From UHGV virus genome UHGV-0114034: 31,989 nt of DNA; one strand, written 5' to 3'. Numbering within the stretch: the stretch's first letter is position 1; each line of letters starts with the position of its first letter. The notes under the pieces are model-generated. The model was not told the origin of the DNA. It searched no databases and was given only the letters and a program-made list of their open reading frames with translations. This DNA comes from a virus. Both the position numbers and the translations under genes were made by a program. Below, one piece after another: positions 1-18,315 of this stretch.

Positions 1-49
1 TCGCCGTAGCGAGTTCAGATAAAAGAAATCCCCGCGAGTGCGAGGATTG

Positions 50-334
50 TTATTCATTGCCGATATTTACCTTTATCGCGAACACCTTTACCGGTTTATC
101 GCCGAAGTGCAGATGTGTGATTGTCTTGATTTCATATCCGTCATACGGAACATCAATTCTGCGGCTGGAGTCGTCGCGCTTCGGATATCCCTTTGTGATA
201 ATCAGGCGGTCATACTTACGGTTAACGAGGCGCTTATTCCAGTAGTCATTACACAGGCGATACTCTTTCGTTTTCTCTCCGCGAATCATGGCATCGAAGT
301 ATTCACCTTTGACGGCAAGTTGCAGGTTAGCCAC
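50..334 (-). CDS. ASCH/PUA-like domain protein (hypothetical)
   Basis: 94-aa ORF; pattern KGEYFDAMIRGEKTKEYR ... HLHFGD resembles ASCH-fold proteins; last gene of leftward early operon. Assignment by recall only. Confidence 0.4.
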   Translation of the reverse strand: MANLQLAVKGEYFDAMIRGEKTKEYRLCNDYWNKRLVNRKYDRLIITKGYPKRDDSSRRIDVPYDGYEIKTITHLHFGDKPVKVFAIKVNIGNE

Positions 335-1247
335 GGTTCACCTCCTGCGGTGCTGCTGGCAGCGGCATCCAGTGGGTTGGCTTGCAGTAGCAATCAAAGC
401 CGTGTCCGTGTGCTGACCCGCCAACGTACGTTGCCATCTTGATTAATGGATCATTACTTTCCGGCGCGTCTGGACGGTACGCCAACACTTGTTCCCCTGC
501 GGAAGGCATCTGCTCACTACAGCTTATCCAACCATCCGGAGTTACCGGAGAGTTGCCAGCCTGAACAGTAGGCATATCCGGACCTTTGCGAATCGCCCTG
601 GCAAGATCGATTGGGTCGTCGTATAACCAGTCACCTGTTTGCGGATGATTGGCCTCTGCCAGTTGCGCCGACCATTCAAGGCCGTCTTTGTGACCTTGCA
701 GATAGTCCAACGGCAACTCATCACGATTACTTACGGGTTCGATTTGTTCGGAATTACCGGACAACTGCATGGTACCTTCATTGGTGAGGGTACCATCTGC
801 ACCCTGAAGCATGGCTGCCCGGCACTCATCAACAGCCTGACACAGCTTGGCGCGGTGATGTCCAGCCATAGTCCCTTTGTTCCAGTCATGCCCCATTGTC
901 ATGCCGTAAGCATGGTGGAGAAGGCGCTTGAAACACTCAGGCACAGCTACCGGCGCTGGAGGGGCGGTGTAGAGCGGCATTACCTCAATATTGAAGATAT
1001 CCCCCTCGCTTGGACACGCCTCTGCGCTACCGTAAACCCAAGGGTGAACGACTCCGTTACGCTTGTTGATTAATCTGTGCGCCCACGCCACAGGCTCCGC
1101 TTCGAGCGATGCCAGCGCGATACGCGCATTATTAATCAGGAGGCTATCAGCAGGAGATAAAACAACATGAGCGTTACCCTCCGCATCAATTTCAGAATTC
1201 GTAATTTTTCTGAACAGCTTTGCCAGTTCTCTGGTAATAGTGCTCAT
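327..1247 (-). CDS. DUF551-domain early protein (Eaa-like)
   Basis: 306-aa ORF; C-terminal motif ...CYCKPTHWMPLPAAP typical of DUF551 C-termini of lambdoid early-region proteins; N-terminal ARIALASLEA module shared with ORF 1519-1803. Confidence 0.5.
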   Translation of the reverse strand: MSTITRELAKLFRKITNSEIDAEGNAHVVLSPADSLLINNARIALASLEAEPVAWAHRLINKRNGVVHPWVYGSAEACPSEGDIFNIEVMPLYTAPPAPVAVPECFKRLLHHAYGMTMGHDWNKGTMAGHHRAKLCQAVDECRAAMLQGADGTLTNEGTMQLSGNSEQIEPVSNRDELPLDYLQGHKDGLEWSAQLAEANHPQTGDWLYDDPIDLARAIRKGPDMPTVQAGNSPVTPDGWISCSEQMPSAGEQVLAYRPDAPESNDPLIKMATYVGGSAHGHGFDCYCKPTHWMPLPAAPQEVNRG

Positions 1248-1522
1248 GGGCGAATCTCCGTCCTGCCACCAAGTAAGCGGATTGCCACTCGTTCCCGGAA
1301 GGTAAGCGGTCGATGGTGTCCGCGGGCATTAACAATTTCAGGCTTTCCATTAGGCGGATAATTGACCCTGACCGATTGACCATCTAGCGCGTGAGAAGCC
1401 TCGAGTAGTGCTGACTTTAAGTGCGCAGGGCACTCTTTCTGCACCCGCTCGCCGTCTGAAATGACACCTGCAATCCCCTGAAGCATGCTGGCTAAATTGC
1501 TGAGATAATTTTTCACATTCAC
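1244..1522 (-). CDS. hypothetical protein
   Basis: 92-aa ORF, 4-nt overlap with neighbours (operon-style coupling). Confidence 0.4.
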   Translation of the reverse strand: MNVKNYLSNLASMLQGIAGVISDGERVQKECPAHLKSALLEASHALDGQSVRVNYPPNGKPEIVNARGHHRPLTFRERVAIRLLGGRTEIRP

Positions 1523-1803
1523 TCTCCTTTACCGGTGCCATAGGCAGATAAGCACTCTTCAAATCCAGCCTGATTATCCGTTTGACCTAAACTGAAGCCA
1601 TGCTGAAGACCATGACGAAATGCGCTATCTTGCAATTTATCTGCGCTATCGAGCTTCGCTTCCAGTTCAGCGATTCGCTTCTCTGCGGCTTCCAGCGATG
1701 CCAGTGCAATTCGTGCCAGTTCCATTTGTTCGCCACGAGTAAGCCCGTTTTCAAGCGGATTTTTAATGAATAATTCGATACGTTCTTTGGTAATAGAATT
1801 CAT
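1519..1803 (-). CDS. hypothetical coiled-coil protein (Ea22-like module)
   Basis: 94-aa ORF containing LEAAEKRIAELEAKL heptad module also present in the frameshifted upstream gene. Confidence 0.45.
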   Translation of the reverse strand: MNSITKERIELFIKNPLENGLTRGEQMELARIALASLEAAEKRIAELEAKLDSADKLQDSAFRHGLQHGFSLGQTDNQAGFEECLSAYGTGKGE

Positions 1804-1804
1804 G

Positions 1805-1996
1805 CTATTTCACCTTAATCTCAACATTTCGCAGCTTTAGCTCTACTGGCAGGTCTGACTTTCCTGTTAATGCTAATGCGAGATTTTCTGGGGTAATGAG
1901 AGCAGTTATTGCTTTCCCCATTGCCAGACGAATAATTATTCGTATTTCGCGATCGTCACATGCTCCTGGTCGAACGATTGATATTTGTCCGTCCAT
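1805..1996 (-). CDS. hypothetical protein
   Basis: 63-aa ORF; start codon 1 nt after the stop of the upstream reading frame. Confidence 0.35.
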   Translation of the reverse strand: MDGQISIVRPGACDDREIRIIIRLAMGKAITALITPENLALALTGKSDLPVELKLRNVEIKVK

Positions 1997-1997
1997 C

Positions 1998-2404
1998 TCA
2001 CTCTCCTTTGATGCGAATGCCTGCGGCGCGGATTGCAGCGATGACTTCAGAAACTTTGTATGCCATTACCGTTTGGTAATCATCGTGAAAATCTGTTCGA
2101 TGAAGCATGCTGCTACGTTCCGGGAGCGATATTTCCCGCGCTTCCAGTTCTGCAATGCGCTTTTTTGCTGCTTCCAGTTCATCCAGTAATTCCAGTACGG
2201 TAGCCGGATTAGCCTTGGCAACAAAATCCCGGACTGGCTTACAATCAATCTCCGCAATGGGTTGATACGATGTGTAGCCATGCTGTCTTGTATAACTACC
2301 GTGACGAATAACAAAAAAATCACCATTTATTTTTTAGCCTGCCACTTATCTTCACCGGCTTTCTCTGCCGCTTCACGCAGTGCCTGATAGTCAATCTTGT
2401 TCAT
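1998..2404 (-). pseudogene. Ea22-like coiled-coil protein, reading frame interrupted (-1 shift) near 2327-2335
   Basis: ATG at 2404 gives MNKIDYQALREAAEKAGEDKWQAKK then TAA at 2327-2329; a start-less open frame continues from 2333 to 1998 (INGDFFVIRHG...LDELEAAKKRIAELEAR...IRIKGE). Junction lies in an A6/T-rich tract. Confidence 0.4.
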
Positions 2405-2405
2405 G

Positions 2406-2705
2406 TCACATCACCCTGAATCCGTTGCATTTACGTAAGAAATCGCAGATATAGCCCTTCATTTTTTCATGCCAATCTCGATCATTCCCATTGCACCAAC
2501 CATCAGGTGGAGTCCAGTTTTCTATCAGAGCAGCCATTTTCTTTGCTTTCGCCGGAGTAGCTGTTGCGGTATCGCAGTAATGACGAGTGTCAACCAACGC
2601 ATCCATACCATCGATATCAAGTACGCAAAACCATGTGTGATTCGGAATTCCTACAGGTGGTATTTGTTGCCCACGTCGACGTTTATCAATAAGATATACA
2701 CTCAC
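2406..2705 (-). CDS. hypothetical protein
   Basis: ORF with probable GTG start at 2705 preceded by AAAGGAGG; start overlaps the stop of the upstream small ORF (GTGA). Confidence 0.4.
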
Positions 2706-2869
2706 TGCTTGCCTCCTTTGCGCCACATCGCATTCAGATATTTGTTTTGATTTACTGACGGAAAAGAATTTCTCTTAAGCAATTCCTCTCTCGATGGCAT
2801 TGGCTTTACGCGTTGGCGAATAATCATTTCTGCCGGAAGAATGCCGGGATTGTATGCAAGTCCTCTCAT
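2702..2869 (-). CDS. small hypothetical protein (55 aa)
   Basis: ATG at 2869 preceded by GAGGAA; [55 protein letters not shown]; stop overlaps downstream start. Below the ORF-track size cutoff. Confidence 0.3.
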
Positions 2870-2885
2870 GATTAATTCCTCTTTG

Positions 2886-3200
2886 TTAATTTATTTGTAT
2901 GCCTGCTCTTTCTTCATCGAGTTTTTTTAGCTTGTATCGCATAGCTCTTACTGAATAAATTGAGCGGCAGGTTGCAATTGCTATTTCTTCTGCGGAGAAC
3001 TTACCGAAAAGTGATACTTCGGCTCTTGTCCATCGTCTTCCACGAAGTCGGCTAACAATGTCAGCGCCAATCCTTGTTGCTTTCGCCATTACTGCTTTTT
3101 CAGTCCTTTCCAGTTTTTCAGCGATAACTTCAACTGGCATTGTCGCCGCTACTTCGCGTAAGAAATCGACTTCCCATTTCTCCCATGGAGTCTTTTTCAT
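2886..3200 (-). CDS. hypothetical protein with two helix-rich repeats (possible DNA-binding)
   Basis: 104-aa ORF; two similar modules ([12 protein letters not shown]... and [14 protein letters not shown]...). Confidence 0.4.
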
Positions 3201-3211
3201 AGGCGATACCG

Positions 3212-3700
3212 TTATTTGATAAGAAGTGAAGGTTTCCCAACCTTGAGTTGAGCGCCTGGGATATTTATTCCTGCTTTTAGTTGGTGCTTGATTGCCAACT
3301 TGTCGGCTTTAATTGTCGTTTCGAACTCAACGTATTCAGGAGGAAGGGCGCTTGAGTCGATGATTTCTACAATTTCTGACGGTTTGCGGATTGTTACCTG
3401 GTGAATACCTGCTCGAATATTTTTCTTGCCAACCATTTCAAGCGATGACGCTATATATGATTTGATGCTGTCAATCTTATTTTGAATTACTGCGGCTCGC
3501 TCATTCAGTGACTTTGCCTCTTCCTTGAGGCGTTCAGCATAACCAGATTCATTTTTAATGACGGAAAGAAGTTGCTCTATTTTATCGGTAAATTCTCCTT
3601 CCATGCCTTCTATTGTGTCAGCAATCATCTCTGGTTCTAAATCTGAATCCATCAATTTTGCGTATTCATTGGCAATTTCATATAGTTTGCTCACTGGCAA
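3212..3700 (-). CDS. Gp157-family protein (coiled-coil, RecT-associated)
   Basis: 162-aa coiled-coil protein adjacent to recT, resembling Siphovirus Gp157-family proteins; by recall. Confidence 0.45.
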   Translation of the reverse strand: MPVSKLYEIANEYAKLMDSDLEPEMIADTIEGMEGEFTDKIEQLLSVIKNESGYAERLKEEAKSLNERAAVIQNKIDSIKSYIASSLEMVGKKNIRAGIHQVTIRKPSEIVEIIDSSALPPEYVEFETTIKADKLAIKHQLKAGINIPGAQLKVGKPSLLIK

Positions 3701-4589
3701 CCTCCAGTTTCGCTTTGCATTCTGCGTAAATGGCTTGTACGTTCTGCTGCAATTTCATTCCAGATGTCAGGCGATATGCTTCTGCAAAATATCGCTTCAA
3801 ATCATCCATGTTTTCAGCCTGAGCCATTTCATCACAAAGAAGTTGTGCTTTATCCGTTATTTCCTGCTGGCGTTTCCGTTCATCTTCGCGGATATCTTCC
3901 TCTGATTTGTGCGGCATAACTGGTTCAGTCCACACACCTTCTTCTTCGTTTAGTACGTGAATAGCACTATCAAGACGTGATGCCTTAGGCCAATACTTGC
4001 TTGCACGCTTTACGACCGTCTTTCGCGCCATCTCATTCCAGTGATTTACCCATGGTCCTTTATCGCTGAATGCCGCCTTGCTTGTTTTCCTTACAGCCTC
4101 AATTTCAGCCAGACTCATCTCTTCCGTTAGATAATCACCTGCTGGCGTCTTAACTGTGCAGTAAACGCCAACGATATCACCACGATCACCGAAGGCGTTG
4201 TATTTATGGGTTGGTGCTTTATCAAGCCCGTTTGACTCATAGGTATCGTTAGCATGAACAAGTTTTGCCTGACCCCATGAGATAACACCAGACTCCATTG
4301 CAATATGGAGCAATCCCATATAACTGATATCAAGGCAAACCATGCCGTCGCGCGGAACTAGATAAGCAAGTTTGCTGGCTGGGTTTAAGGTGATGCCGAT
4401 CGCCGCAACATTGATGATGGCGTTCTGTGCGCTGGTTGGATTTGCCAGTGCCGTTTTAGCCAGGTAATCATTTTTCTGGAAATACTGAATTGCAAACTGG
4501 CTTTCCTTAGCCCATGTCACCGTCTGTTCAGTCAATGCTCCGCAGAATAACTGCTCTTGCTGTTTAACGAATTCAACGATATTGCTCAT
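3678..4589 (-). CDS. recT: RecT-family single-strand annealing recombinase
   Basis: 303-aa ORF; motif KGPWVNHWNEMARKTVVKRASKYWP matches the conserved RecT core (Rac RecT ...GPWVTHWEEMAKKTAIRRLFKYLP). Confidence 0.85.
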   Translation of the reverse strand: MSNIVEFVKQQEQLFCGALTEQTVTWAKESQFAIQYFQKNDYLAKTALANPTSAQNAIINVAAIGITLNPASKLAYLVPRDGMVCLDISYMGLLHIAMESGVISWGQAKLVHANDTYESNGLDKAPTHKYNAFGDRGDIVGVYCTVKTPAGDYLTEEMSLAEIEAVRKTSKAAFSDKGPWVNHWNEMARKTVVKRASKYWPKASRLDSAIHVLNEEEGVWTEPVMPHKSEEDIREDERKRQQEITDKAQLLCDEMAQAENMDDLKRYFAEAYRLTSGMKLQQNVQAIYAECKAKLEVASEQTI

Positions 4590-4897
4590 GCTGCTTCTCC
4601 AAAAATGTGTCTGCGTTTGAATATTGCGAAGGCATATTCAGCCTTAACTCTTTCGGTTATTGCATCCCAGAACCATTCAGCGGCTTTTTCCTGATAGTTA
4701 CAGTCATCATCTTCCAGCCAGTCGATAGCGTCCTTAGTGTGTTCATCTGGTTTATATGAGCGAAGCATTTCGCTTATTGGGTCGCAACGTTTGCAGAGGC
4801 GATCAACTTCACTGTTGATTCGTTCGTAATCTTCATCAGTAAAACTTGCGATTATTTGCGATATTTCACGCTTATCATTCAGAGTCAGAATCATCAT
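4586..4897 (-). CDS. hypothetical protein
   Basis: 103-aa ORF immediately upstream of recT with 4-nt overlap. Confidence 0.45.
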   Translation of the reverse strand: MMILTLNDKREISQIIASFTDEDYERINSEVDRLCKRCDPISEMLRSYKPDEHTKDAIDWLEDDDCNYQEKAAEWFWDAITERVKAEYAFAIFKRRHIFGEAA

Positions 4898-5334
4898 CTT
4901 TCTCCTGTTCTTTGTGCTGATTGAGTATTTTTTTCATCTGACGAATGAATTCTTCGTCTGACCAGTTATCTGTAAAACTCATGGACGGCCTTGTTGTTTC
5001 AAAATATCCCAAAGCTTTTCGAGCAAGCTTTTCATTCTTGGTTGTTTAAAGTCTGCTCCGGTTAAAATATTTTTTCGTGAATGCTGTACCGATAAAATCG
5101 GGTTGAAAGGGCGAACCGATGCCGCCCCAGCAATAGCGAACTGTTGCATAGGATGCTCCTTCTGTTTTATTGCATAACGAAAACGCCTCGAGTGAAGCGT
5201 TATTGGTATGCATATAAAAAGGCCCTCACACTGGAGGGCAAAGAAGATTTCCAATAATCAGAACAAGTCGGCTCCTGTTTAGTTACGAGCGACATTGCTC
5301 CGTGTATTCACTCGTTGGAATGAATACACAGTGT

Positions 5335-5538
5335 TTATTCGCGAGCTTTGAGCATTGCGTCTGCAAACTTATATGCAGCGCTTGCTGCATAATTAACAGC
5401 TCCATCAGAATCATTATCGATAATCGATGGATTGCTAATCATTGCTTGCATAGCCTTTGCCGCGAAGTAATCACGTAATGTCGCATCACTTGCCATTTCT
5501 GGGCGTTTGATATCTGCTTCATAAAACTCGCACATCAT
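5335..5538 (-). CDS. hypothetical protein
   Basis: 67-aa ORF, 4-nt overlap with upstream gene; followed by a 9-bp-stem hairpin (5303-5329). Confidence 0.4.
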   Translation of the reverse strand: MMCEFYEADIKRPEMASDATLRDYFAAKAMQAMISNPSIIDNDSDGAVNYAASAAYKFADAMLKARE

Positions 5539-5828
5539 TCACCTCCCAGAGCCTTGCTGATTGCTGCAAGACCTTTATTAACAGCTTCATACCATTCTGG
5601 ATATGTTGTCGTTGTTCTATTTTTGGATTGCTTAAGTAATAACTGAAGTGCTTCGAGAAGGTCAGGTGCTGCCGCTATCAGTAGCGCATCCTCCCTTTCA
5701 TTTCTTGTTGCTGCTTCAATGTATGTGTCACCAATCGTCACACCATGGAACGTAGTCATCATCTCGTTGACGTTTCTAACCGTGTACTTCCATTTACCAG
5801 GCGTACCCTTAAACTCTTTCATATTCAC
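5535..5828 (-). CDS. Ead/Ea22-like family protein
   Basis: 97-aa ORF with GTPGKW near N-terminus and LLIAAAPDLLEALQLL motif, both recalled as hallmarks of Ead/Ea22-like early proteins. Confidence 0.45.
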   Translation of the reverse strand: MNMKEFKGTPGKWKYTVRNVNEMMTTFHGVTIGDTYIEAATRNEREDALLIAAAPDLLEALQLLLKQSKNRTTTTYPEWYEAVNKGLAAISKALGGE

Positions 5829-5869
5829 CTCTGTTGTTTATGCCCAAAATAAAGGCCGACTATTCGGCC

Positions 5870-6037
5870 TTAAAATCCTGAATATTCGCGAAGAGATTCG
5901 ATAATTTCCTCGCAGTCGATAAGTAGTTCGTCAGGTTCATCTTCTCGATTTTTAAGTGCCTCAATGTTCCCAGCTAACTGGCGAAGCATCATTGCTTGCC
6001 ATTCAGGGTCGAAGCTGTCTGGTATTTCAATTTCCAT
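5870..6037 (-). CDS. small acidic hypothetical protein (55 aa)
   Basis: ATG at 6037; MEIEIPDSFDPEWQAMMLRQLAGNIEALKNREDEPDELLIDCEEIIESLREYSGF; stop overlaps hairpin AGGCCGA-CTAT-TCGGCCT (5853-5870). Confidence 0.3.
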   Translation of the reverse strand: MEIEIPDSFDPEWQAMMLRQLAGNIEALKNREDEPDELLIDCEEIIESLREYSGF

Positions 6038-6099
6038 ATTTCACCTCAAATAAGTGGTTTGCTGCCAAAACAATGAACCATCAGGAAATTCCAGATAGT

Positions 6100-6327
6100 T
6101 CATAATTCACTCTTCAATACTTCCAACTTACTAATCGCCGATAGATATCCGCGCTGATAGGGCATCATCATTCCTTCGAGCTTGCCACTTCTTAACTCCT
6201 CCCTGAGCAATTGTATTGCTTGATCAATAACCTCTGCCTTAGCGTCCTTTATGGCTTGCTTTCGGGGCTTTGCTTTCTGCTTTGGCAGATTTCTCAAGCA
6301 TGATGGAATGTATGTCTGATTCATCAC
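6100..6327 (-). CDS. hypothetical basic protein
   Basis: 75-aa ORF directly downstream of N in the pL operon. Confidence 0.4.
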   Translation of the reverse strand: MMNQTYIPSCLRNLPKQKAKPRKQAIKDAKAEVIDQAIQLLREELRSGKLEGMMMPYQRGYLSAISKLEVLKSEL

Positions 6328-6600
6328 TTACCTCGCTGTCAGTTGTTTTGATTTCCGGTAGCCTGCCGCGTAAAGAGCTACGTTTGGCAGGCAAATACTT
6401 CCACTGCATTCATCTGCCTTCTTGCAGCGAAGGCTTCCGAGTGATGCTGCTTTGTCTGCTCTGACGCAACCAGAGAGCTTTAGCGCAATTTTTCGCGCCA
6501 GTGCTTCATTACTGCGTCGCTCGGCAATAAGTTCTGCTCTGCGAGCTTTGTAGCGGCTTTTTGCCGTACCTTTGGATTCTTTCCAGACAATGGTTACCAT
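6328..6600 (-). CDS. N: N antitermination protein, phage-21-type arginine-rich motif
   Basis: Start at MVTIV (RBS AAAGGAG); N-terminal GTAKSRYKARRAELIAERR matches the phage 21 N ARM peptide as I recall it; first gene downstream of pL/nutL. Confidence 0.7.
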   Translation of the reverse strand: MVTIVWKESKGTAKSRYKARRAELIAERRSNEALARKIALKLSGCVRADKAASLGSLRCKKADECSGSICLPNVALYAAGYRKSKQLTAR

Positions 6601-6710
6601 GATGGTCTCCTTTAAGTGGCTTTGGCGCATGACGCGTCGAGGTGCTTATCTTCTCGATCGCTGTCTTGCAGCTGCAATTCGCGCCATCCCCAAAACCACT
6701 CAAGTTCTGG

Positions 6711-6751
6711 TCTCAACGGTTAGGTTGAGAGTTCGTCGATGTTAAAGAGCC
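6711..6751 (-). promoter_or_regulatory. nutL: boxA-like GCTCTTTAACA and boxB hairpin TCTCAACCTAACCGTTGAGA
   Basis: On minus strand between pL and N: boxA-like element then 7-bp stem with CUAACC loop, similar to nutR boxB at 9436-9454. Confidence 0.6.
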
Positions 6752-6789
6752 TGCCAATCTGTTCCTTGTGGCGTCTCAGCGTCCTGCTG

Positions 6790-6845
6790 ATGGAAATGAT
6801 AGTCACATATTGTGATTTAATGGTCAATCACAAAATGTGTAAAAT
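6790..6845 (-). promoter_or_regulatory. OL operators and pL promoter
   Basis: Palindromes TCACAtatTGTGA (6803-6815) and TCACAaaaTGTGT (6828-6840), same family as in OR; minus-strand TTGACC-17-GACTAT. Confidence 0.55.
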
Positions 6846-7076
6846 AAAGGTGTGACACGTTATGTGTATGATTTTTTTGTGTAAATAGTTTTACCCGCGA
6901 TGGTTTTGCTTACTTAAGTCGGTGGCAACAGCAGGATGGGTGCTGAAAAGTTCGAAAAACGAGCGAATGGGGTGGTGGCGAGATGGCGGGATATGGGAGT
7001 TGTATTAAGAATTATAGTAATTTAATCAATAGTTTGGACCGGCTGGCAGGTGTTGTCCTGATAGTGATCGGCGGGC

Positions 7077-7103
7077 AATAAAAAACCCGGCGCTGAGGCC
7101 GGG
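7077..7103 (-). terminator. rho-independent terminator ending the immunity-region accessory cassette
   Basis: Minus strand: hairpin CCCGGC-CUCAGC-GCCGGG followed by UUUUUUAUU. Confidence 0.6.
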
Positions 7104-7110
7104 TTGATGA

Positions 7111-7233
7111 TTAGCGGTGTGGCCTTGAGCGATAATGCTCACACACATGTTCAAGATTTCCATGCCTTATCCGTTCATAGGCATTCACATGAACTTCTCG
7201 ATCGAATTGGTCATTCAAATTGTATGTAGACAT
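7111..7233 (-). CDS. small hypothetical His/Cys-containing protein (40 aa)
   Basis: MSTYNLNDQFDREVHVNAYERIRHGNLEHVCEHYRSRPHR; stop 8 nt before terminator hairpin; weak RBS. Confidence 0.3.
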   Translation of the reverse strand: MSTYNLNDQFDREVHVNAYERIRHGNLEHVCEHYRSRPHR

Positions 7234-7406
7234 CTGTGTTTTCTCATATTGGCGGCAGCCCTACAACCGCTTGAAAAAATGTACCAGACGCGCTAAGGTT
7301 ACATCGCAAATATTGTGTACCTTAACAAGGGCTCCTTTTGGAGGCTCTGGTTAAACAGCATCAATGTCGGACTGGGGAGTTGGACATTGTGCTGAATGCT
7401 TTTGCA

Positions 7407-7928
7407 TTATTGAGGCCGAACGTAAACCTTCAGAATTGAAGAGATGCGTTCGGCTTCTTCGTTTGTGATATCGTTAGGAATGCCTTTAATCGTTACTGTA
7501 ACCCCTGATTCAGGTCGAAGAACTACTGGAAGATCATAGGTATGAAGTGCATTAGCCTTGCCTTCGACTTTTGTTGGTTCGCCAGTCAAATCTTTTTCCT
7601 CACTGGATTCTTTGTCAATCGGAGTGTATGGGATTTCTTCACCAGACTGGAAAGCTACAAACTTTTTGATTGCACTTTCCATGCGGCTTTTATATGCAGT
7701 AATGCTGCTGTCGCTAGGCTTCGGCTCAGTTGCGTTGATGTATCGCTCGGCAAGCTCATTCACATCAAGCTGAGTAACATCACCCATTTCCTCTTCTTGG
7801 ACTACCGTTAAGAGGCGAGCGGATGAGTTTTTTAAATTTCGAGCGGTGGCCTCCTTCATTATGTTCAGCGACATAAGCTCTTCAAGGAAGTCCTTGAATG
7901 CCTGCACGCTAACGTTTGACTTTGCCAT
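7407..7928 (-). CDS. hypothetical acidic protein, immunity-region moron (rexAB-equivalent position)
   Basis: 173-aa ORF between cI and OL on the cI strand with own promoter-like element (7961-7989) and flanking terminators; no recognisable motif. Confidence 0.6.
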   Translation of the reverse strand: MAKSNVSVQAFKDFLEELMSLNIMKEATARNLKNSSARLLTVVQEEEMGDVTQLDVNELAERYINATEPKPSDSSITAYKSRMESAIKKFVAFQSGEEIPYTPIDKESSEEKDLTGEPTKVEGKANALHTYDLPVVLRPESGVTVTIKGIPNDITNEEAERISSILKVYVRPQ

Positions 7929-7960
7929 TTGCTCTCTCTCTAAGTTATTGACTCAGATCG

Positions 7961-8002
7961 AGTTTATCCAGGAATTGATTTGCATGCAAGACTCAAGTCT
8001 TG
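7961..8002 (-). promoter_or_regulatory. putative sigma70 promoter with overlapping palindromes for the accessory cassette
   Basis: Minus strand TTGCAT-17-TAAACT; palindromes CAAGACT-ca-AGTCTTG (7987-8002) and TCTTGA-n10-TCAAGA adjacent to the -35. Confidence 0.35.
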
Positions 8003-8030
8003 AGAATTTCCGTTCAAGATCCACTCTCAA

Positions 8031-8055
8031 TAAAAAAGGCCGCACCTCTGCGACC
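8031..8055 (-). terminator. rho-independent terminator downstream of cI
   Basis: Minus strand: GGUCGCA-GAGG-UGCGGCC hairpin followed by UUUUUUAUU. Confidence 0.6.
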
Positions 8056-8429
8056 TTTCATCTCCTAAATCTCTTTTCTCTTACCTAAAGAAACAGCAGG
8101 CTGGGTCAGCCCTAACAACTTCAAGTGCATCGGTCAGAGAAAGCTCCGTGCTATACAGGTGTTATTTCATATCTTTTTGCATCCAATAAATTTTCCATCT
8201 GTCCAGAGAGCTGATGCACTTGATTCTTGTTGATGGCAGGACGTTTTTTCACCTGCCTCACCCTGCCATACAGGACGCTGCTCACCGATATCTATTGTCC
8301 GGTCATTGATGTTATAGACAATATCCAGATCATTACGGATATACTCAGATGGCCTTATGCTTTCAATGAATAGATGAACTTCTTTTTGACCGCGTGATAC
8401 TCATGGCCATTAAACTCCATCTATCCTCT

Positions 8430-9077
8430 TCACCCAAACGTCTCTTCAGGCCACTGCGCCTTAACTACCTTGCCTATGATGCGGCAGCTATGGTCGCAAT
8501 CCAGGGTTCTATATGCCGGGTTTAAAGGTACCAGGTAACTAACCCCTGCATCCTTCTCATACTTCTTGAACGTTGCCTCTGAATCACCATTTGCAGAAGC
8601 CACGCAGAAATCCCCAGACTCTACCGGCTCAGCCGGATCAACGAGTATCAGCATGCCTTCCGGAAAACTTGGACGAACCCCCTGAGGCGCCGTCATTGAA
8701 TGCCCCTTCACCTCAAGCCAGAAAGCTTTTTCGCTGGCTTTTGTGGTCGTTGGGACCCATGCCTTTGCATCGCTGGCTGTGTAGCTTCCCACCTCCGAAA
8801 ATGGCCCAGCCTGCACTGAAGAAAATAACGGGTATTCATATTGGCGAAATACGGCGTCTGAATCCTCGCCAAACATTATTTTTGCCGGAGATACGCCGAG
8901 TGCCGCCCCAAGAACCAGCGCGTCATCCGCGCTAACCTTTCTTGTTCCTAACTCGTAGTTCCCCAGGCGTGAAGGCGCAGCCCAGCCGCAAAGCTTGGCC
9001 AATTGAGCCTGGCTAAGTCCTTTAGCTTCTCTAAGGGACTTGATCCTTTCCCCGATAATTTCATGCATCGTTTTCAT
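8430..9077 (-). CDS. cI: CI-type prophage repressor (HTH plus S24 LexA-like peptidase domain)
   Basis: N-terminal HTH ([22 protein letters not shown]) and C-terminal S24 autocleavage domain (KGHSM); divergent from cro across operators. Start may be the second ATG at 9068 (AAGGGA 8 nt upstream). Confidence 0.85.
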
Positions 9078-9083
9078 CCCTTA

Positions 9084-9170
9084 AATGTAACACGCAACGT
9101 GATTGAACTCTGTACACGAATTGAGGTTGACTGTTAATCACAAATTGTGTGTAATGGGTGTGTGATTAAT
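9084..9170. promoter_or_regulatory. OR operators with divergent pR (rightward) and pRM (leftward)
   Basis: TCACAaatTGTGT palindrome (9137-9149) plus TGTGTGATTAA repeat; pR candidate TTGACT(9127-9132)-17-TGTAAT. Confidence 0.55.
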
Positions 9171-9185
9171 GCTAGGGAGACCGAA

Positions 9186-9404
9186 ATGAACAAAATTGCC
9201 CAGCAGCGAAAAAAAATCGGAGTTTCGCAAGCTGTACTAGCTTCGGCAATTGGTTGGGGGCAATCCCGCATCGCCAACTATGAGCTGAATATCCGTACTC
9301 CTGGCCTTAACGATTGCCGAATGATCGTAGAAGGCCTCAGGAAGTTAGGGTGCCAATGTTCTTTGGATGATGTTTTCCCTCCATCCAGTAACAAAGCCGC
9401 CTAA
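9186..9404 (+). CDS. cro: Cro-like repressor (HTH)
   Basis: 72 aa from MNKIAQQ (RBS GGGAGA); HTH GVSQAVLASAIGWGQSRIANYE; first gene of pR operon. Confidence 0.7.
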   Translation: MNKIAQQRKKIGVSQAVLASAIGWGQSRIANYELNIRTPGLNDCRMIVEGLRKLGCQCSLDDVFPPSSNKAA

Positions 9405-9412
9405 GCAGTACC

Positions 9413-9454
9413 CGCTCTTTAACAGTCATGGCCTTTCACCTCTAACCGGGTGAG
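9413..9454 (+). promoter_or_regulatory. nutR: boxA CGCTCTTTAACA and boxB hairpin TTCACCTCTAACCGGGTGA
   Basis: boxA near-identical to lambda consensus CGCTCTTACACA; boxB stem TCACC/GGTGA with CUAACC-containing loop, as recalled for phage 21. Confidence 0.7.
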
Positions 9455-9521
9455 CAAACATCAGCGGCAAATCCATTGGGTGTGCCTCTATAACTCAATA
9501 TCAATATAGGAAAATTAACAA

Positions 9522-9818
9522 ATGGCACAAGCAAGTTATAGCAAGCCAACACAGCGAGAAATTGATCGCGCTGAAACTGATTTACTCATCAACCTGTCAA
9601 CGCTTACCCAGCGCGGTCTGGCAAAGATGATTGGCTGTCATGAATCGAAGATAAGCAGAACGGACTGGAGATTTATTGCTTCGGTCTTGTGTGCTTTTGG
9701 AATGGCATCAGACATCAGTCCGATTAGCAGGGCTTTTAAGTATGCGCTTGATGAAATCACAAAGAAAAAATCCCCGGCCGCCACCGAGGATTTTAAGCAA
9801 ATTGATATGCAATTCTGA
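9522..9818 (+). CDS. cII: CII transcriptional activator
   Basis: 98 aa; C-terminus KKKSPAATEDFKQIDMQF parallels lambda CII KKRPAATERSEQIQMEF; position after cro/nutR. Confidence 0.75.
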   Translation: MAQASYSKPTQREIDRAETDLLINLSTLTQRGLAKMIGCHESKISRTDWRFIASVLCAFGMASDISPISRAFKYALDEITKKKSPAATEDFKQIDMQF

Positions 9819-9850
9819 GGTCATTACTGGATCAATCCACAGGAGTCATT

Positions 9851-10696
9851 ATGACAAATACAGCAAAAATACTCAACTTCGGCAGAGGTAACTTTGCCGA
9901 ACAGGAGCTAAGAGTGGCTGATATCGATGATGGTTACACCAGATTCGCTAACGAGCTGCTGGAAGCTATCGCAAGTGCCGATTTAACCGCTCGCCAGTTG
10001 AAAGTTATGCTGGCCTACGTCCGGAAAACATATGGCTTCAATAAGAAAACAGATCGAATAGCCGATGAGCAAATTGCTCAGTTAACAGGACTGTCAAGGC
10101 AGAATGTTAACAAGGCTAAAAAAGAACTGATTTCAATGAATTGCCTGTTTATGGATGGAAATCAAATCGGTGTAAACAGGGAGGTATCTGCGTGGCAATT
10201 CAGCAAGTGTCTCCAAGTTAGCAACTTTGTCTCGAAGTTAGAGACACTCAATGTCTCGAAGTTAGAGACACTCAATGTCTCGAAGTTAGAGACACACAAA
10301 AGACATTCTTTAAAGACAAAAGAAAATATTAATAAACCCCCTATATCCCCCAAAAAAGTTTCTCAGAAGTTCGACCCGCTAGAAACAGAGTTGCCTGATT
10401 GGTTATCAGCAGAAACATGGTTGTCGTGGGTTACCTATCGCAAGGAGATAGGTAAGTCGATCAAGTCTAAGCAAAGTGTCACTCAGGCTATCAACGTTCT
10501 AAGCAGAAGTCTGGAGAAGGGATATACACCTGAAGAAATTATAAACCAGAGCATCGCCAGTGGTTGGCAGGGGATTTTTGAGCCCAAGACTCCAAAGGGG
10601 AAATCTCAACCGAGGCCGCAGCATCGAGCTATGCAGGAAAACTTTGCCACCAAAGATTACGGACAAACTGAAATGCCTTCATGGGCGCAGGAGTGA
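9851..10696 (+). CDS. O: replication initiator O
   Basis: N-terminus MTNTAKILNFGRGNFAEQELRVADIDDGY closely matches lambda O; in-gene iterons encode repeated VSKLETLN peptide. Confidence 0.8.
   Translation: MTNTAKILNFGRGNFAEQELRVADIDDGYTRFANELLEAIASADLTARQLKVMLAYVRKTYGFNKKTDRIADEQIAQLTGLSRQNVNKAKKELISMNCLFMDGNQIGVNREVSAWQFSKCLQVSNFVSKLETLNVSKLETLNVSKLETHKRHSLKTKENINKPPISPKKVSQKFDPLETELPDWLSAETWLSWVTYRKEIGKSIKSKQSVTQAINVLSRSLEKGYTPEEIINQSIASGWQGIFEPKTPKGKSQPRPQHRAMQENFATKDYGQTEMPSWAQE
10207..10300 (+). repeat. ori iterons: about four ~24-bp direct repeats (GTCTCGAAGTTAGAGACACTCAAT) followed by AT-rich segment
   Basis: Two perfect and two degenerate tandem copies inside O, then AT-rich 10300-10360; lambda-type ori architecture. 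Confidence 0.7.
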
Positions 10697-10698
10697 AC

Positions 10699-11544
10699 AT
10701 GACGCTGGATGAAAAGATCTCCCAACTGGAGAAAAAACTTGCAGAATTGAGTTCTCCGCCAATTGCTATCGAGCATACATCTGTAGAAATTGGCACTGGC
10801 ATCTGTGAAAAACATGGTGAGTTTGAGCAGCGTAACCGTTACTCGACTGGGCCAATTAAGTTTGCCTCAAGACCTAGCGAATGCCCGGAATGCATGAGAG
10901 ATAAGCTTATTCGGCTACAGGCAGAGAAGATTAAAATCGACGAGGAATCACGTAAGCGCAATGTCGAGTTTCTGTTGAATAATCTTGATATTCCTGAACG
11001 ATTCAAGGGTTGCACACTACAGAACTACGAGCCAGTCAACGACGATGCAAAGAGAGTGCTCAGGGTGTGTCAGGCATACGCCAGCAAATGGCCTGAGAGG
11101 TTACAGAAAGGCGGTGGGCTGGTTATGTGTGGAAAGCCTGGTACTGGAAAGAATCATCTTGCACTGGCTATCGCCCGGCACGCAATTACGGAACATCAAA
11201 GCTCAGCTATTTTCACAACGGCGCTGAAAATTGCCAGAGAATATAAATCAACATGGTCGAAAAACTCCACCCGCACAGAGGATGAAGTGATCCGACAGTT
11301 CACTAAACCTGACCTGCTAATTATCGATGAGGTTGGTGTGCAGTTTGGAAGCGAGGCGGAAAAGATGATCATGTTCGAAATCATCAACACCCGCTACGAG
11401 TGCATGAAGCCAACAATCCTGATTAGCAACCAGAGCAAAGATGAACTGTCTGCATTCATTGGTGAGCGTGTTATTGACAGGATGAATGATGGCGGCGGGT
11501 GCACTCTTGCGTTTACATGGGATAGTTACAGGAGCAGATCGTGA
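10699..11544 (+). CDS. DnaC/IstB-family helicase loader (P-position replication protein)
   Basis: Walker A GKPGTGKNHLA and Walker B LLIIDEVG; start at MTLDEK; overlaps O stop. Confidence 0.8.
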   Translation: MTLDEKISQLEKKLAELSSPPIAIEHTSVEIGTGICEKHGEFEQRNRYSTGPIKFASRPSECPECMRDKLIRLQAEKIKIDEESRKRNVEFLLNNLDIPERFKGCTLQNYEPVNDDAKRVLRVCQAYASKWPERLQKGGGLVMCGKPGTGKNHLALAIARHAITEHQSSAIFTTALKIAREYKSTWSKNSTRTEDEVIRQFTKPDLLIIDEVGVQFGSEAEKMIMFEIINTRYECMKPTILISNQSKDELSAFIGERVIDRMNDGGGCTLAFTWDSYRSRS

Positions 11545-11831
11545 CTGGAAAAGAAATCATCCTGGAATATCTGAAAACTCATGAACAATTCTCCCCACAT
11601 GAATTAGCACTGATCACCGGAATACCAAATAACAGAATCGCTCAAGCAGCAAGGCATATGGTGAAACAAGGACATTTGAGTGTTGTTGAGCGTAAGTGGA
11701 AGACGGTTATTTATGCAAAGCGCAAAGTGAAGAAGGAGCCAATTAAAAGAAATCCAGATGGTACGGGGTGGGGATGTGCAAATCCAATGACGGCGTTTAT
11801 TAATAGGGCGCTTATGGAGGTAAGGCAATGA
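11541..11831 (+). CDS. ren: Ren-like protein
   Basis: N-terminus MTGKEIILEYLKTHEQF parallels lambda Ren MTGKEAIIHYLGTHNSF; position after P. Confidence 0.5.
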   Translation: MTGKEIILEYLKTHEQFSPHELALITGIPNNRIAQAARHMVKQGHLSVVERKWKTVIYAKRKVKKEPIKRNPDGTGWGCANPMTAFINRALMEVRQ

Positions 11832-18118: not shown

Positions 18119-18315
18119 GAATCAATATCAAATATTTGATTTCAAATGCAATAATTTCATATTTAATGAAAACGATTATCATTTGCTGGGGGGCGGGTCA
18201 AAAGTTCAGACCCCATGCTGCTAAGGACCGCCGCCTAGCCTCTTTTCACATCGCCGCAGGTTAGAAAACTTTTTTATGGGGTCCCCCATTCGATGATTAA
18301 TAGGAGTTTTCGATT
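18119..18315 (+). other. probable cos/packaging recognition region
   Basis: Non-coding gap between HNH and terS: perfect palindrome TCAAATATTTGA (18128-18139), AT-rich block, then G-rich GGGGGGCGGGTC resembling the lambda cohesive-end sequence. Confidence 0.3.

Follow-up and report, generated by a model that had tools for sequence, protein, structure and literature searches.

The question raised by this locus is why a region with the hallmarks of a single ea22-like gene appears as two short reading frames on the same strand, and whether this results from a mutation, from an error in the sequence, from a recoding device or from the presence of two distinct genes. The region spans positions 1998-2404 of the window, a term that designates here the complete stretch of 31,989 nucleotides of the virus genome UHGV-0114034 that was analysed.

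Organization of the interrupted locus

The locus is read on the minus strand. An ATG at 2404-2402 opens a frame of 25 sense codons (MNKIDYQALREAAEKAGEDKWQAKK) that ends at TAA 2329-2327. In the -1 frame, 111 codons without a stop (KINGDFF...IRIKGE) extend from 2333 to 2001 and are closed by TGA 2000-1998; this frame features no ATG, GTG or TTG ahead of ATG 2108, so that its first 75 codons lack a start. The two frames meet in the sequence GCT-AAAAAA-TAAAT, whose six adenines (A6, 2335-2330) are read in the zero frame as U-AAA-AAA-UAA. The 3' fragment codes for the remainder of the N-terminal domain, a short coiled-coil motif and a C-terminal module ending in KGE. An additional ORF of 86 codons shares the frame of the 25-codon ORF, its ATG at 2326 following the TAA directly (TAAATG). 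The positions that the first-pass annotation had assigned to these elements were all correct when rechecked. The features of the region are compiled in Table 1.

Table 1. Features of the ea22-family locus and of its immediate neighbours in the window.
Feature	Position	Strand	Remark
5' ea22-family fragment, conserved N-terminal helix	2327..2404	-	No difference from the intact L001 and L002 protein (135 aa) over residues 1-25
A6 tract, site of the 1-nt deletion	2330..2335	-	A7 in relatives (codons AAA AAA ATA)
3' fragment, -1 frame, 111 codons and TGA	1998..2333	-	Counterpart of residues 25-135 of the intact protein, 100% identity
Helical or coiled-coil-like motif PATVLELLDELEAAKKRIAELEARE, residues 67-91 of the repaired protein	2133..2207	-	Alignment with lambda Ea22
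Wrong-frame 86-aa ORF overlapping the true Ea22 frame	2066..2326	-	No family match
AAGGAG Shine-Dalgarno sequence of the downstream 63-aa gene, inside the Ea22 K-G-E codons AAA-GGA-GAG, followed by TGA-G-ATG	2003..2008	-	
Upstream DUF7739 gene, 99 aa as called elsewhere	2406..2705	-	Pfam PF24881, E=6.7e-19
Downstream 63-aa hypothetical gene, ATG at 1996	1805..1996	-	Identical to WP_000348980.1 in relatives

Family assignment of the repaired gene

Addition of one A to the tract generates a protein of 135 aa that is 100% identical to WP_032285064.1 of two relatives (L001 and L002), whose gene carries seven adenines (A7) and is a single CDS of 408 nt annotated as 'ead/Ea22-like family protein'. 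The repaired protein matches the Pfam family PF13935 (Ead_Ea22) with 66 bits (cutoff 27; E=6.7e-18); this alignment covers residues 3-101 and crosses the junction of the two frames. Agreement of this kind greatly exceeds what chance would give. Its BLASTP alignment with lambda Ea22 (E=4e-6) also crosses the junction and comprises the N-terminal helix and the start of the coiled-coil. The proposal of one Ea22-like gene that a -1 frame change at the A tract has divided is confirmed, both by this Pfam alignment and by the relatives with A7, which read through. The locus is a member of the ead/Ea22 family by descent, but in the form of a frameshifted allele that has no intact reading frame, with a TAA after codon 25 and the remainder of the gene in the -1 frame.

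Ea22 proteins begin with a conserved N-terminal helix, continue with a coiled-coil region and end in a C-terminal domain that varies (PMC7093339, PMC10834534). The coiled-coil-like stretch of the repaired protein comprises only about 25 residues and was assigned by alignment with the start of the lambda Ea22 coiled-coil (PMC7093339). This motif marks a mosaic boundary beyond which the C-terminal modules differ among relatives. The terminus ..GIRIKGE corresponds to the C-terminal K/R-G-E tripeptide described for Ea22 proteins (PMC7093339), and the DNA that encodes it is the same as in the last part of lambda ea22. A search for relatives of the repaired protein among solved structures gave only a marginal match (E=0.1) to an unrelated replication protein.

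The 86-aa ORF was considered as a gene in its own right and rejected. It has no match in Pfam or NCBIfam, is absent from a collection of 15 billion proteins and was never called; the annotated frame in relatives is the other one. As had been suspected from the sequence, ORF 2066-2326 is an artefact, produced by reading the wrong frame.

The A tract among relatives

Window positions 1950-2450 were compared by megablast with 5,426 complete E. coli genomes, giving 1,612 records whose best matches extend over 502 nt for a query of 501 nt. The comparison with E. coli 1916D6 (L001) reveals a single-base difference, A6 versus A7, and zero substitutions over the 501 nt. The tract was found by a base-by-base script to be A7 in 98 of 98 relatives, and it is A7 in all 54 HSPs of at least 97% identity. 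At every one of the 92 loci that contain the end of the gene the ORF runs for 90-225 codons beyond the tract, whatever the C-terminal module.

Searches centred on the junction gave the same picture. A query of 61 nt had matches in 274 complete E. coli genomes, 74 phage records and 2 plasmids, among which neither A6 nor any match of at least 99% identity was found; the matches listed all span 62 nt, which is the A7 form. A pattern that allowed A6 or A7 retrieved 72 IMG/VR contigs and 23 metagenome contigs, all with the 34 nt of the A7 length, and the junction was found with neither A6 nor A7 in the species-representative genomes of GTDB. Tracts of A5, A8 or A9 did not occur: A7 alone is present outside the lineage of the window and A6 alone inside it, with 0 cases of A6 in about 450 occurrences outside this lineage.

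Two unusual arrangements were noted during this survey. In a Logan contig of SRR19373521 (L104:2517-3111) the last 36 codons (MLHRTDFHDD..IRIKGE) are called as a separate ORF that follows an unrelated gene of 170 aa and has AAGGAGG 8 nt upstream of its ATG; it is a recombination remnant or possibly an independent mini-gene. Lookup of the 36-aa remnant ORF (1998-2108) for further A6 alleles returned only truncated contigs and this unrelated mosaic. In GCA_900603255.1 (L121:1802-2313) another N-terminal variant of Ea22 is called as proteins of 61 and 109 aa in different frames with an ATGA overlap, and an element of the IS21 family adjoins it. Either a second disruption, independent of the first, or a variant that is split by nature could explain this arrangement.

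The A6 form as a probable genuine allele

Exact-sequence lookup of the neighbouring proteins led to contigs that share the gene order of the window and carry A6. The ENA contig ERZ27239027 k119_29723 (L102/L110, 73 kb) has A6 and equals window positions 1-11827 apart from a 24-nt indel in the replication-O gene. The Logan contig ERR1620299_5290 (L111, 11 kb) has A6 and is 100% identical to window positions 1-10257, and the ENA contig ERZ28586267 scaffold_2598 (L116) combines A6 with a T-to-C change at 2313. The first two hold the whole Ea22 slot of about 410 nt and have no gene called in it.

All these A6-carrying contigs are gut-metagenome assemblies. The run ERR1620298, which adjoins ERR1620299, bears the label PRJEB15371; this project covers a Crohn's-disease gut cohort and used Illumina HiSeq 2000 with paired reads of 100 bp. 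ERR1620299 was taken as a member of the same project because of this neighbouring label. The sequencing platform is documented for PRJEB15371 only. L116 bears the label 'HEQI17', which probably refers to this study as well. The contigs may thus come from one cohort, from the same individuals or even from one or two read sets, and their independence is unproven.

The most serious alternative, though an improbable one, is that the true tract is A7, the gene is intact and A6 is a homopolymer miscall of sequencing or assembly. A length change of 1 nt in a homopolymer is the commonest type of technical indel, the remaining sequence is identical to intact alleles, the other occurrences in databases are all A7 and shared read sets may lie behind the A6 contigs. 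What speaks against an error is the recurrence of A6 in three differently named assemblies (a k119_ contig, a Logan contig and a scaffold), of which one has a different linked SNP and at least one comes from an Illumina HiSeq 2000 project. Illumina consensus errors at runs of 6-7 nt are rare. A further argument comes from the 35 homopolymers of at least 6 nt that are covered by relatives of at least 97% identity (23 kb). The Ea22 tract alone shows a 1-nt length discrepancy, whereas the other 34, including all three runs of 8 nt, show none. Because A6 is present in three other contigs and in at least one Illumina project, and because no other homopolymer shows such a discrepancy, the change from A7 to A6 is most likely a real, lineage-specific mutation due to replication slippage rather than a sequencing error; the zero substitutions relative to the intact allele over 501 nt indicate that it is recent.

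Three other differences in tracts or repeats were observed. Window positions 18188-18193 are G6 where the single close relative has G9, a difference of 3 nt upstream of the terminase small-subunit gene that leaves the frame unbroken. The indel of 24 nt (8 codons) relative to L110 lies at 10272-10295 (plus strand) in the replication-O gene (9851-10696). Since L111 stops shortly ahead of this indel, at 10257, the site may be a repeat (iteron-type) that breaks or collapses assemblies. Finally, the A6 tract and a T7 tract located 10 nt downstream (AAAAAA-TAAATGGTGA-TTTTTTT; 2313-2335, minus strand) form a weak inverted repeat, paired in the minimum free energy (MFE) fold, for which no functional meaning was found. 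Most relatives combine A7 with TTTTTTC, the window combines A6 with T7 and L116 combines A6 with TTTTTTC.

Recoding and leakiness

The sequence U_AAA_AAA does not conform to the canonical X_XXY_YYZ heptamer, as the P-site tRNA keeps 2 of 3 pairs, and it is analogous to C_AAA_AAA, at which shifting in E. coli is documented (PMC1851650). If tRNA-Lys slipped by -1 on one or both of the AAA codons, which the slow decoding of the stop would favour, ribosomes would enter the open frame, and the product of such a slip, ..AKK-INGDFF.., would have the exact wild-type sequence. The C-AAA-AAA of pDEST17 supports 25-60% of -1 ribosomal frameshifting in E. coli without recognisable stimulators, a value obtained under T7 overexpression, and transcriptional slippage at its A6 run was excluded by RT-PCR (PMC1851650). 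In lambda cI the suppression of single-bp deletions reaches about 10%, for the most part through a lysine A-run motif, with an overall range of 1-10% (PMC10861913). By analogy with these systems the mutation is probably leaky and some wild-type protein may result, at an unquantified level; the systems compared have other sequence contexts, in one case with T7 overexpression, and the permissive window here comprises just two codons.

A stronger version of this argument is that A6-TAA evolved for recoding, as a programmed -1 ribosomal frameshift or transcriptional slippage site that sets the ratio of the 25-aa peptide to full-length Ea22, or as a phase-variation tract. We regard it as highly improbable. 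The position of U-AAA-AAA directly before a stop, the restoration of the wild-type protein by a -1 slip, the efficient shifting at X-AAA-AAA in E. coli (PMC1851650) and the persistence of A6 in more than one contig or haplotype are compatible with it. The two-frame layout is, however, unconserved in the survey of about 450 occurrences outside the lineage, no other tract length was seen that would signal phase variation, and the zero substitutions relative to intact alleles leave no selective history readable. Nor were stimulators found. The fold of positions 2345-2250 has an MFE of -17.1 against a shuffle mean of -16.7 (z=-0.15), thus no downstream structure above shuffles, and inspection for an upstream Shine-Dalgarno-like element gave no strong one, the sole candidates being an AGG and a GGUG of 4 nt at a distance of about 16 nt. 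For transcriptional slippage, A6 is well under the A/T run of about 9 nt at which this process becomes evident in bacterial genomes (PMC1088944). It is just as improbable that A6 is a selected hypomorph, in which efficient slippage would yield a low dose of Ea22 together with the 25-residue helix peptide and retune the lysis-lysogeny choice in the gut. Such a reading, if true, would make the locus a natural 'savior indel' in a temperate phage.

The interpretation that can be set aside most readily is that the 25-aa peptide is one normal gene and the 86-aa ORF or the product of the 111-codon frame another: TAAATG makes reinitiation into the 86-aa frame physically possible and separately called pieces exist in L104 (the last 36 codons) and in L121 (the other Ea22 variant), but homologs with the two parts as separate genes, which would have spoken against a split gene, were not encountered for this N-terminal variant, as it is a single ORF in all 98 relatives, the 111-codon frame has no start in its first 75 codons and both the Pfam and the lambda alignments cross the junction.

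Operon neighbourhood and the KGE junction

The gene order on the minus strand is RecT, Gp157, DUF2737, DUF7739, Ea22, small ORFs and DUF551, followed by the prophage end and host genes. This order identifies the region as the leftward early operon of a lambdoid prophage with mosaic structure, in which the ea22-family gene sits between the recombination genes (RecT, Gp157) and the prophage end. No full-length relative of the window was found, the best being phage mEp235 (44% covered) and mosaic E. coli prophages. The TGA of the DUF7739 gene (2408-2406) lies 1 nt ahead of the Ea22 ATG in a translationally coupled layout, and the succession of DUF7739 and, 1 nt later, an Ead_Ea22 gene is present in 10 of 10 sampled genomes. 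On the other side, the 63-aa gene is normally coupled to the end of Ea22.

Two further genes, located downstream, carry Ea22-like coiled-coil motifs. The gene of 94 aa at 1519-1803 (minus strand) features the motif ASLEAAEKRIAELEAKL, has 11-nt DNA words in common with the Ea22 motif and also terminates in KGE, while the gene of the 306-aa DUF551 protein at 327-1247 (minus strand) features the motif ARIALASLEAEPV. Both are below the Pfam threshold for Ead_Ea22. They might buffer a loss of Ea22.

Past the left end of the window, the segment L110:11800-20285 carries, after the prophage end, genes for LysR-type, GntP-permease and PALP proteins, which we take to be dsdC-dsdX-dsdA-like, and then MFS/RND-adaptor and response-regulator genes. 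The presence of these genes beyond the prophage end places the prophage in an enterobacterial chromosome. No integrase is found at the prophage end in L110, just ORFs of 114 and 66 aa.

At the end of the Ea22 gene, 77 of 92 relatives have the arrangement AAA-GGA-GAG, stop, one nucleotide and ATG or GTG (AAAGGAGAG-stop-N-ATG/GTG), and the C-terminal domains to which it is joined are of many different kinds. AAGGAG, a consensus Shine-Dalgarno sequence, stands here 6 nt before the start of the next gene (window sites 2001-2009 and 1994-1996, minus strand), and the 94-aa gene ends likewise (1519-1530). Lambda ea22 (L127) retains ATCAAAGGAGAGTGAGAT; the following ATG is ATC there and no coupled ORF is left. 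The KGE tripeptide was called 'of unknown significance' (PMC7093339). Because its codons embed AAGGAG 6 nt before the next start, it may be conserved as a signal for translational coupling and as a mosaic junction rather than for protein function.

Probable origin and predicted consequences of the frameshift

The ea22-family gene of the window is thus, very probably, a recent frameshift pseudogene or hypomorph of one prophage lineage that arose by an ordinary and probably leaky deletion. Among the causes that had been offered for the split, a pseudogene born from a real indel is favoured and a sequencing indel is unlikely; for slippage-dependent expression, the programmed version is unsupported and chance slippage is plausible. 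A homopolymer contraction is a classic product of replication slippage, and the coding A7 would have contracted to A6 by strand slippage during replication, a process whose action at homopolymers has been discussed (PMC1088944). Ribosomes that initiate at ATG 2404 would then stop at the TAA after 25 codons and make the first helix only. The N-terminal beta-strand part, the coiled-coil motif and the C-terminal module (111 codons) would be stranded in the -1 frame without a start codon.

Deletion of ea22 in lambda and Phi24B leads to a shorter latent period, a larger burst, and less lysogenisation and host survival (PMC7093339). By analogy with these two phages, loss of Ea22 in this prophage would shift the phage toward lysis, with faster and larger lytic bursts and fewer lysogens. 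The pL transcripts of lambdoid phages are antiterminated. Since, in addition, the 63-aa gene has its own AAGGAG 6 nt before ATG 1996, downstream genes would be little affected and strong polarity on this gene is not expected.

The correct annotation of the locus is a frameshifted ead/Ea22-like gene, in place of a 25-aa gene and an 86-aa ORF. If the allele is real, an accessory function that promotes lysogeny is lost or weakened in this prophage lineage, whose induction behaviour could change modestly. The frameshift affects a non-essential accessory gene of a lambdoid prophage, from a family that favours lysogeny in the phages tested; it involves no new mechanism, and its importance beyond annotation is small. 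Note that the A6 allele is a clean natural frameshift whose compensating slip would restore the wild-type protein, which makes it a convenient, not novel, test substrate for non-programmed suppression.

Relation to known systems

A close parallel for the slip itself is the attB1 C-AAA-AAA site of pDEST17 (Belfield et al. 2007, PMC1851650). Both are zero-frame X-AAA-AAA sites at which a single-base deletion is, or here would be, compensated with no recognised stimulators, and in both, after the -1 shift, tRNA-Lys is left with 2 of 3 pairs in the P site and with 3 of 3 in the A site. They differ in that X is U in the window and C in pDEST17, and in the stop codon that directly follows the site here.

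The frameshift FS8 of lambda cI (Springstein et al. 2024, PMC10861913) is similar as a non-programmed case in which a one-base deletion in a lambdoid phage gene is offset by -1 slippage, mainly at a lysine A-run motif, to an aggregate of 1-10% there. The slip window has 56 codons in FS8 and two codons here, the main site there is A_AAA_AAG, and the product here would have the wild-type sequence. The G7 run of the herpesvirus thymidine kinase, with its 'savior' indel (PMC5009743), is likewise a homopolymer indel in a viral accessory gene. Low-level frameshifting at that locus gives a reduced, non-zero amount of product, a possible parallel to the situation here; the herpesvirus indel is drug-selected, whereas no selective advantage is known for A6.

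With respect to the protein, the repaired gene product belongs to the same HMM family (PF13935) as the Ea22 proteins of lambda and of the Stx phages Phi24B, 933W and P27, it aligns with lambda Ea22 over the N-terminal helix and the start of the coiled-coil, and it has an extra N-terminal segment of the kind described for Stx-phage Ea22. Compared to lambda Ea22 it is shorter (135 versus 182 aa), has a different C-terminal module and is interrupted by the frameshift, but the terminal ..GIRIKGE is encoded on the same DNA and, in both phages, the gene follows the recombination genes within the leftward early operon.
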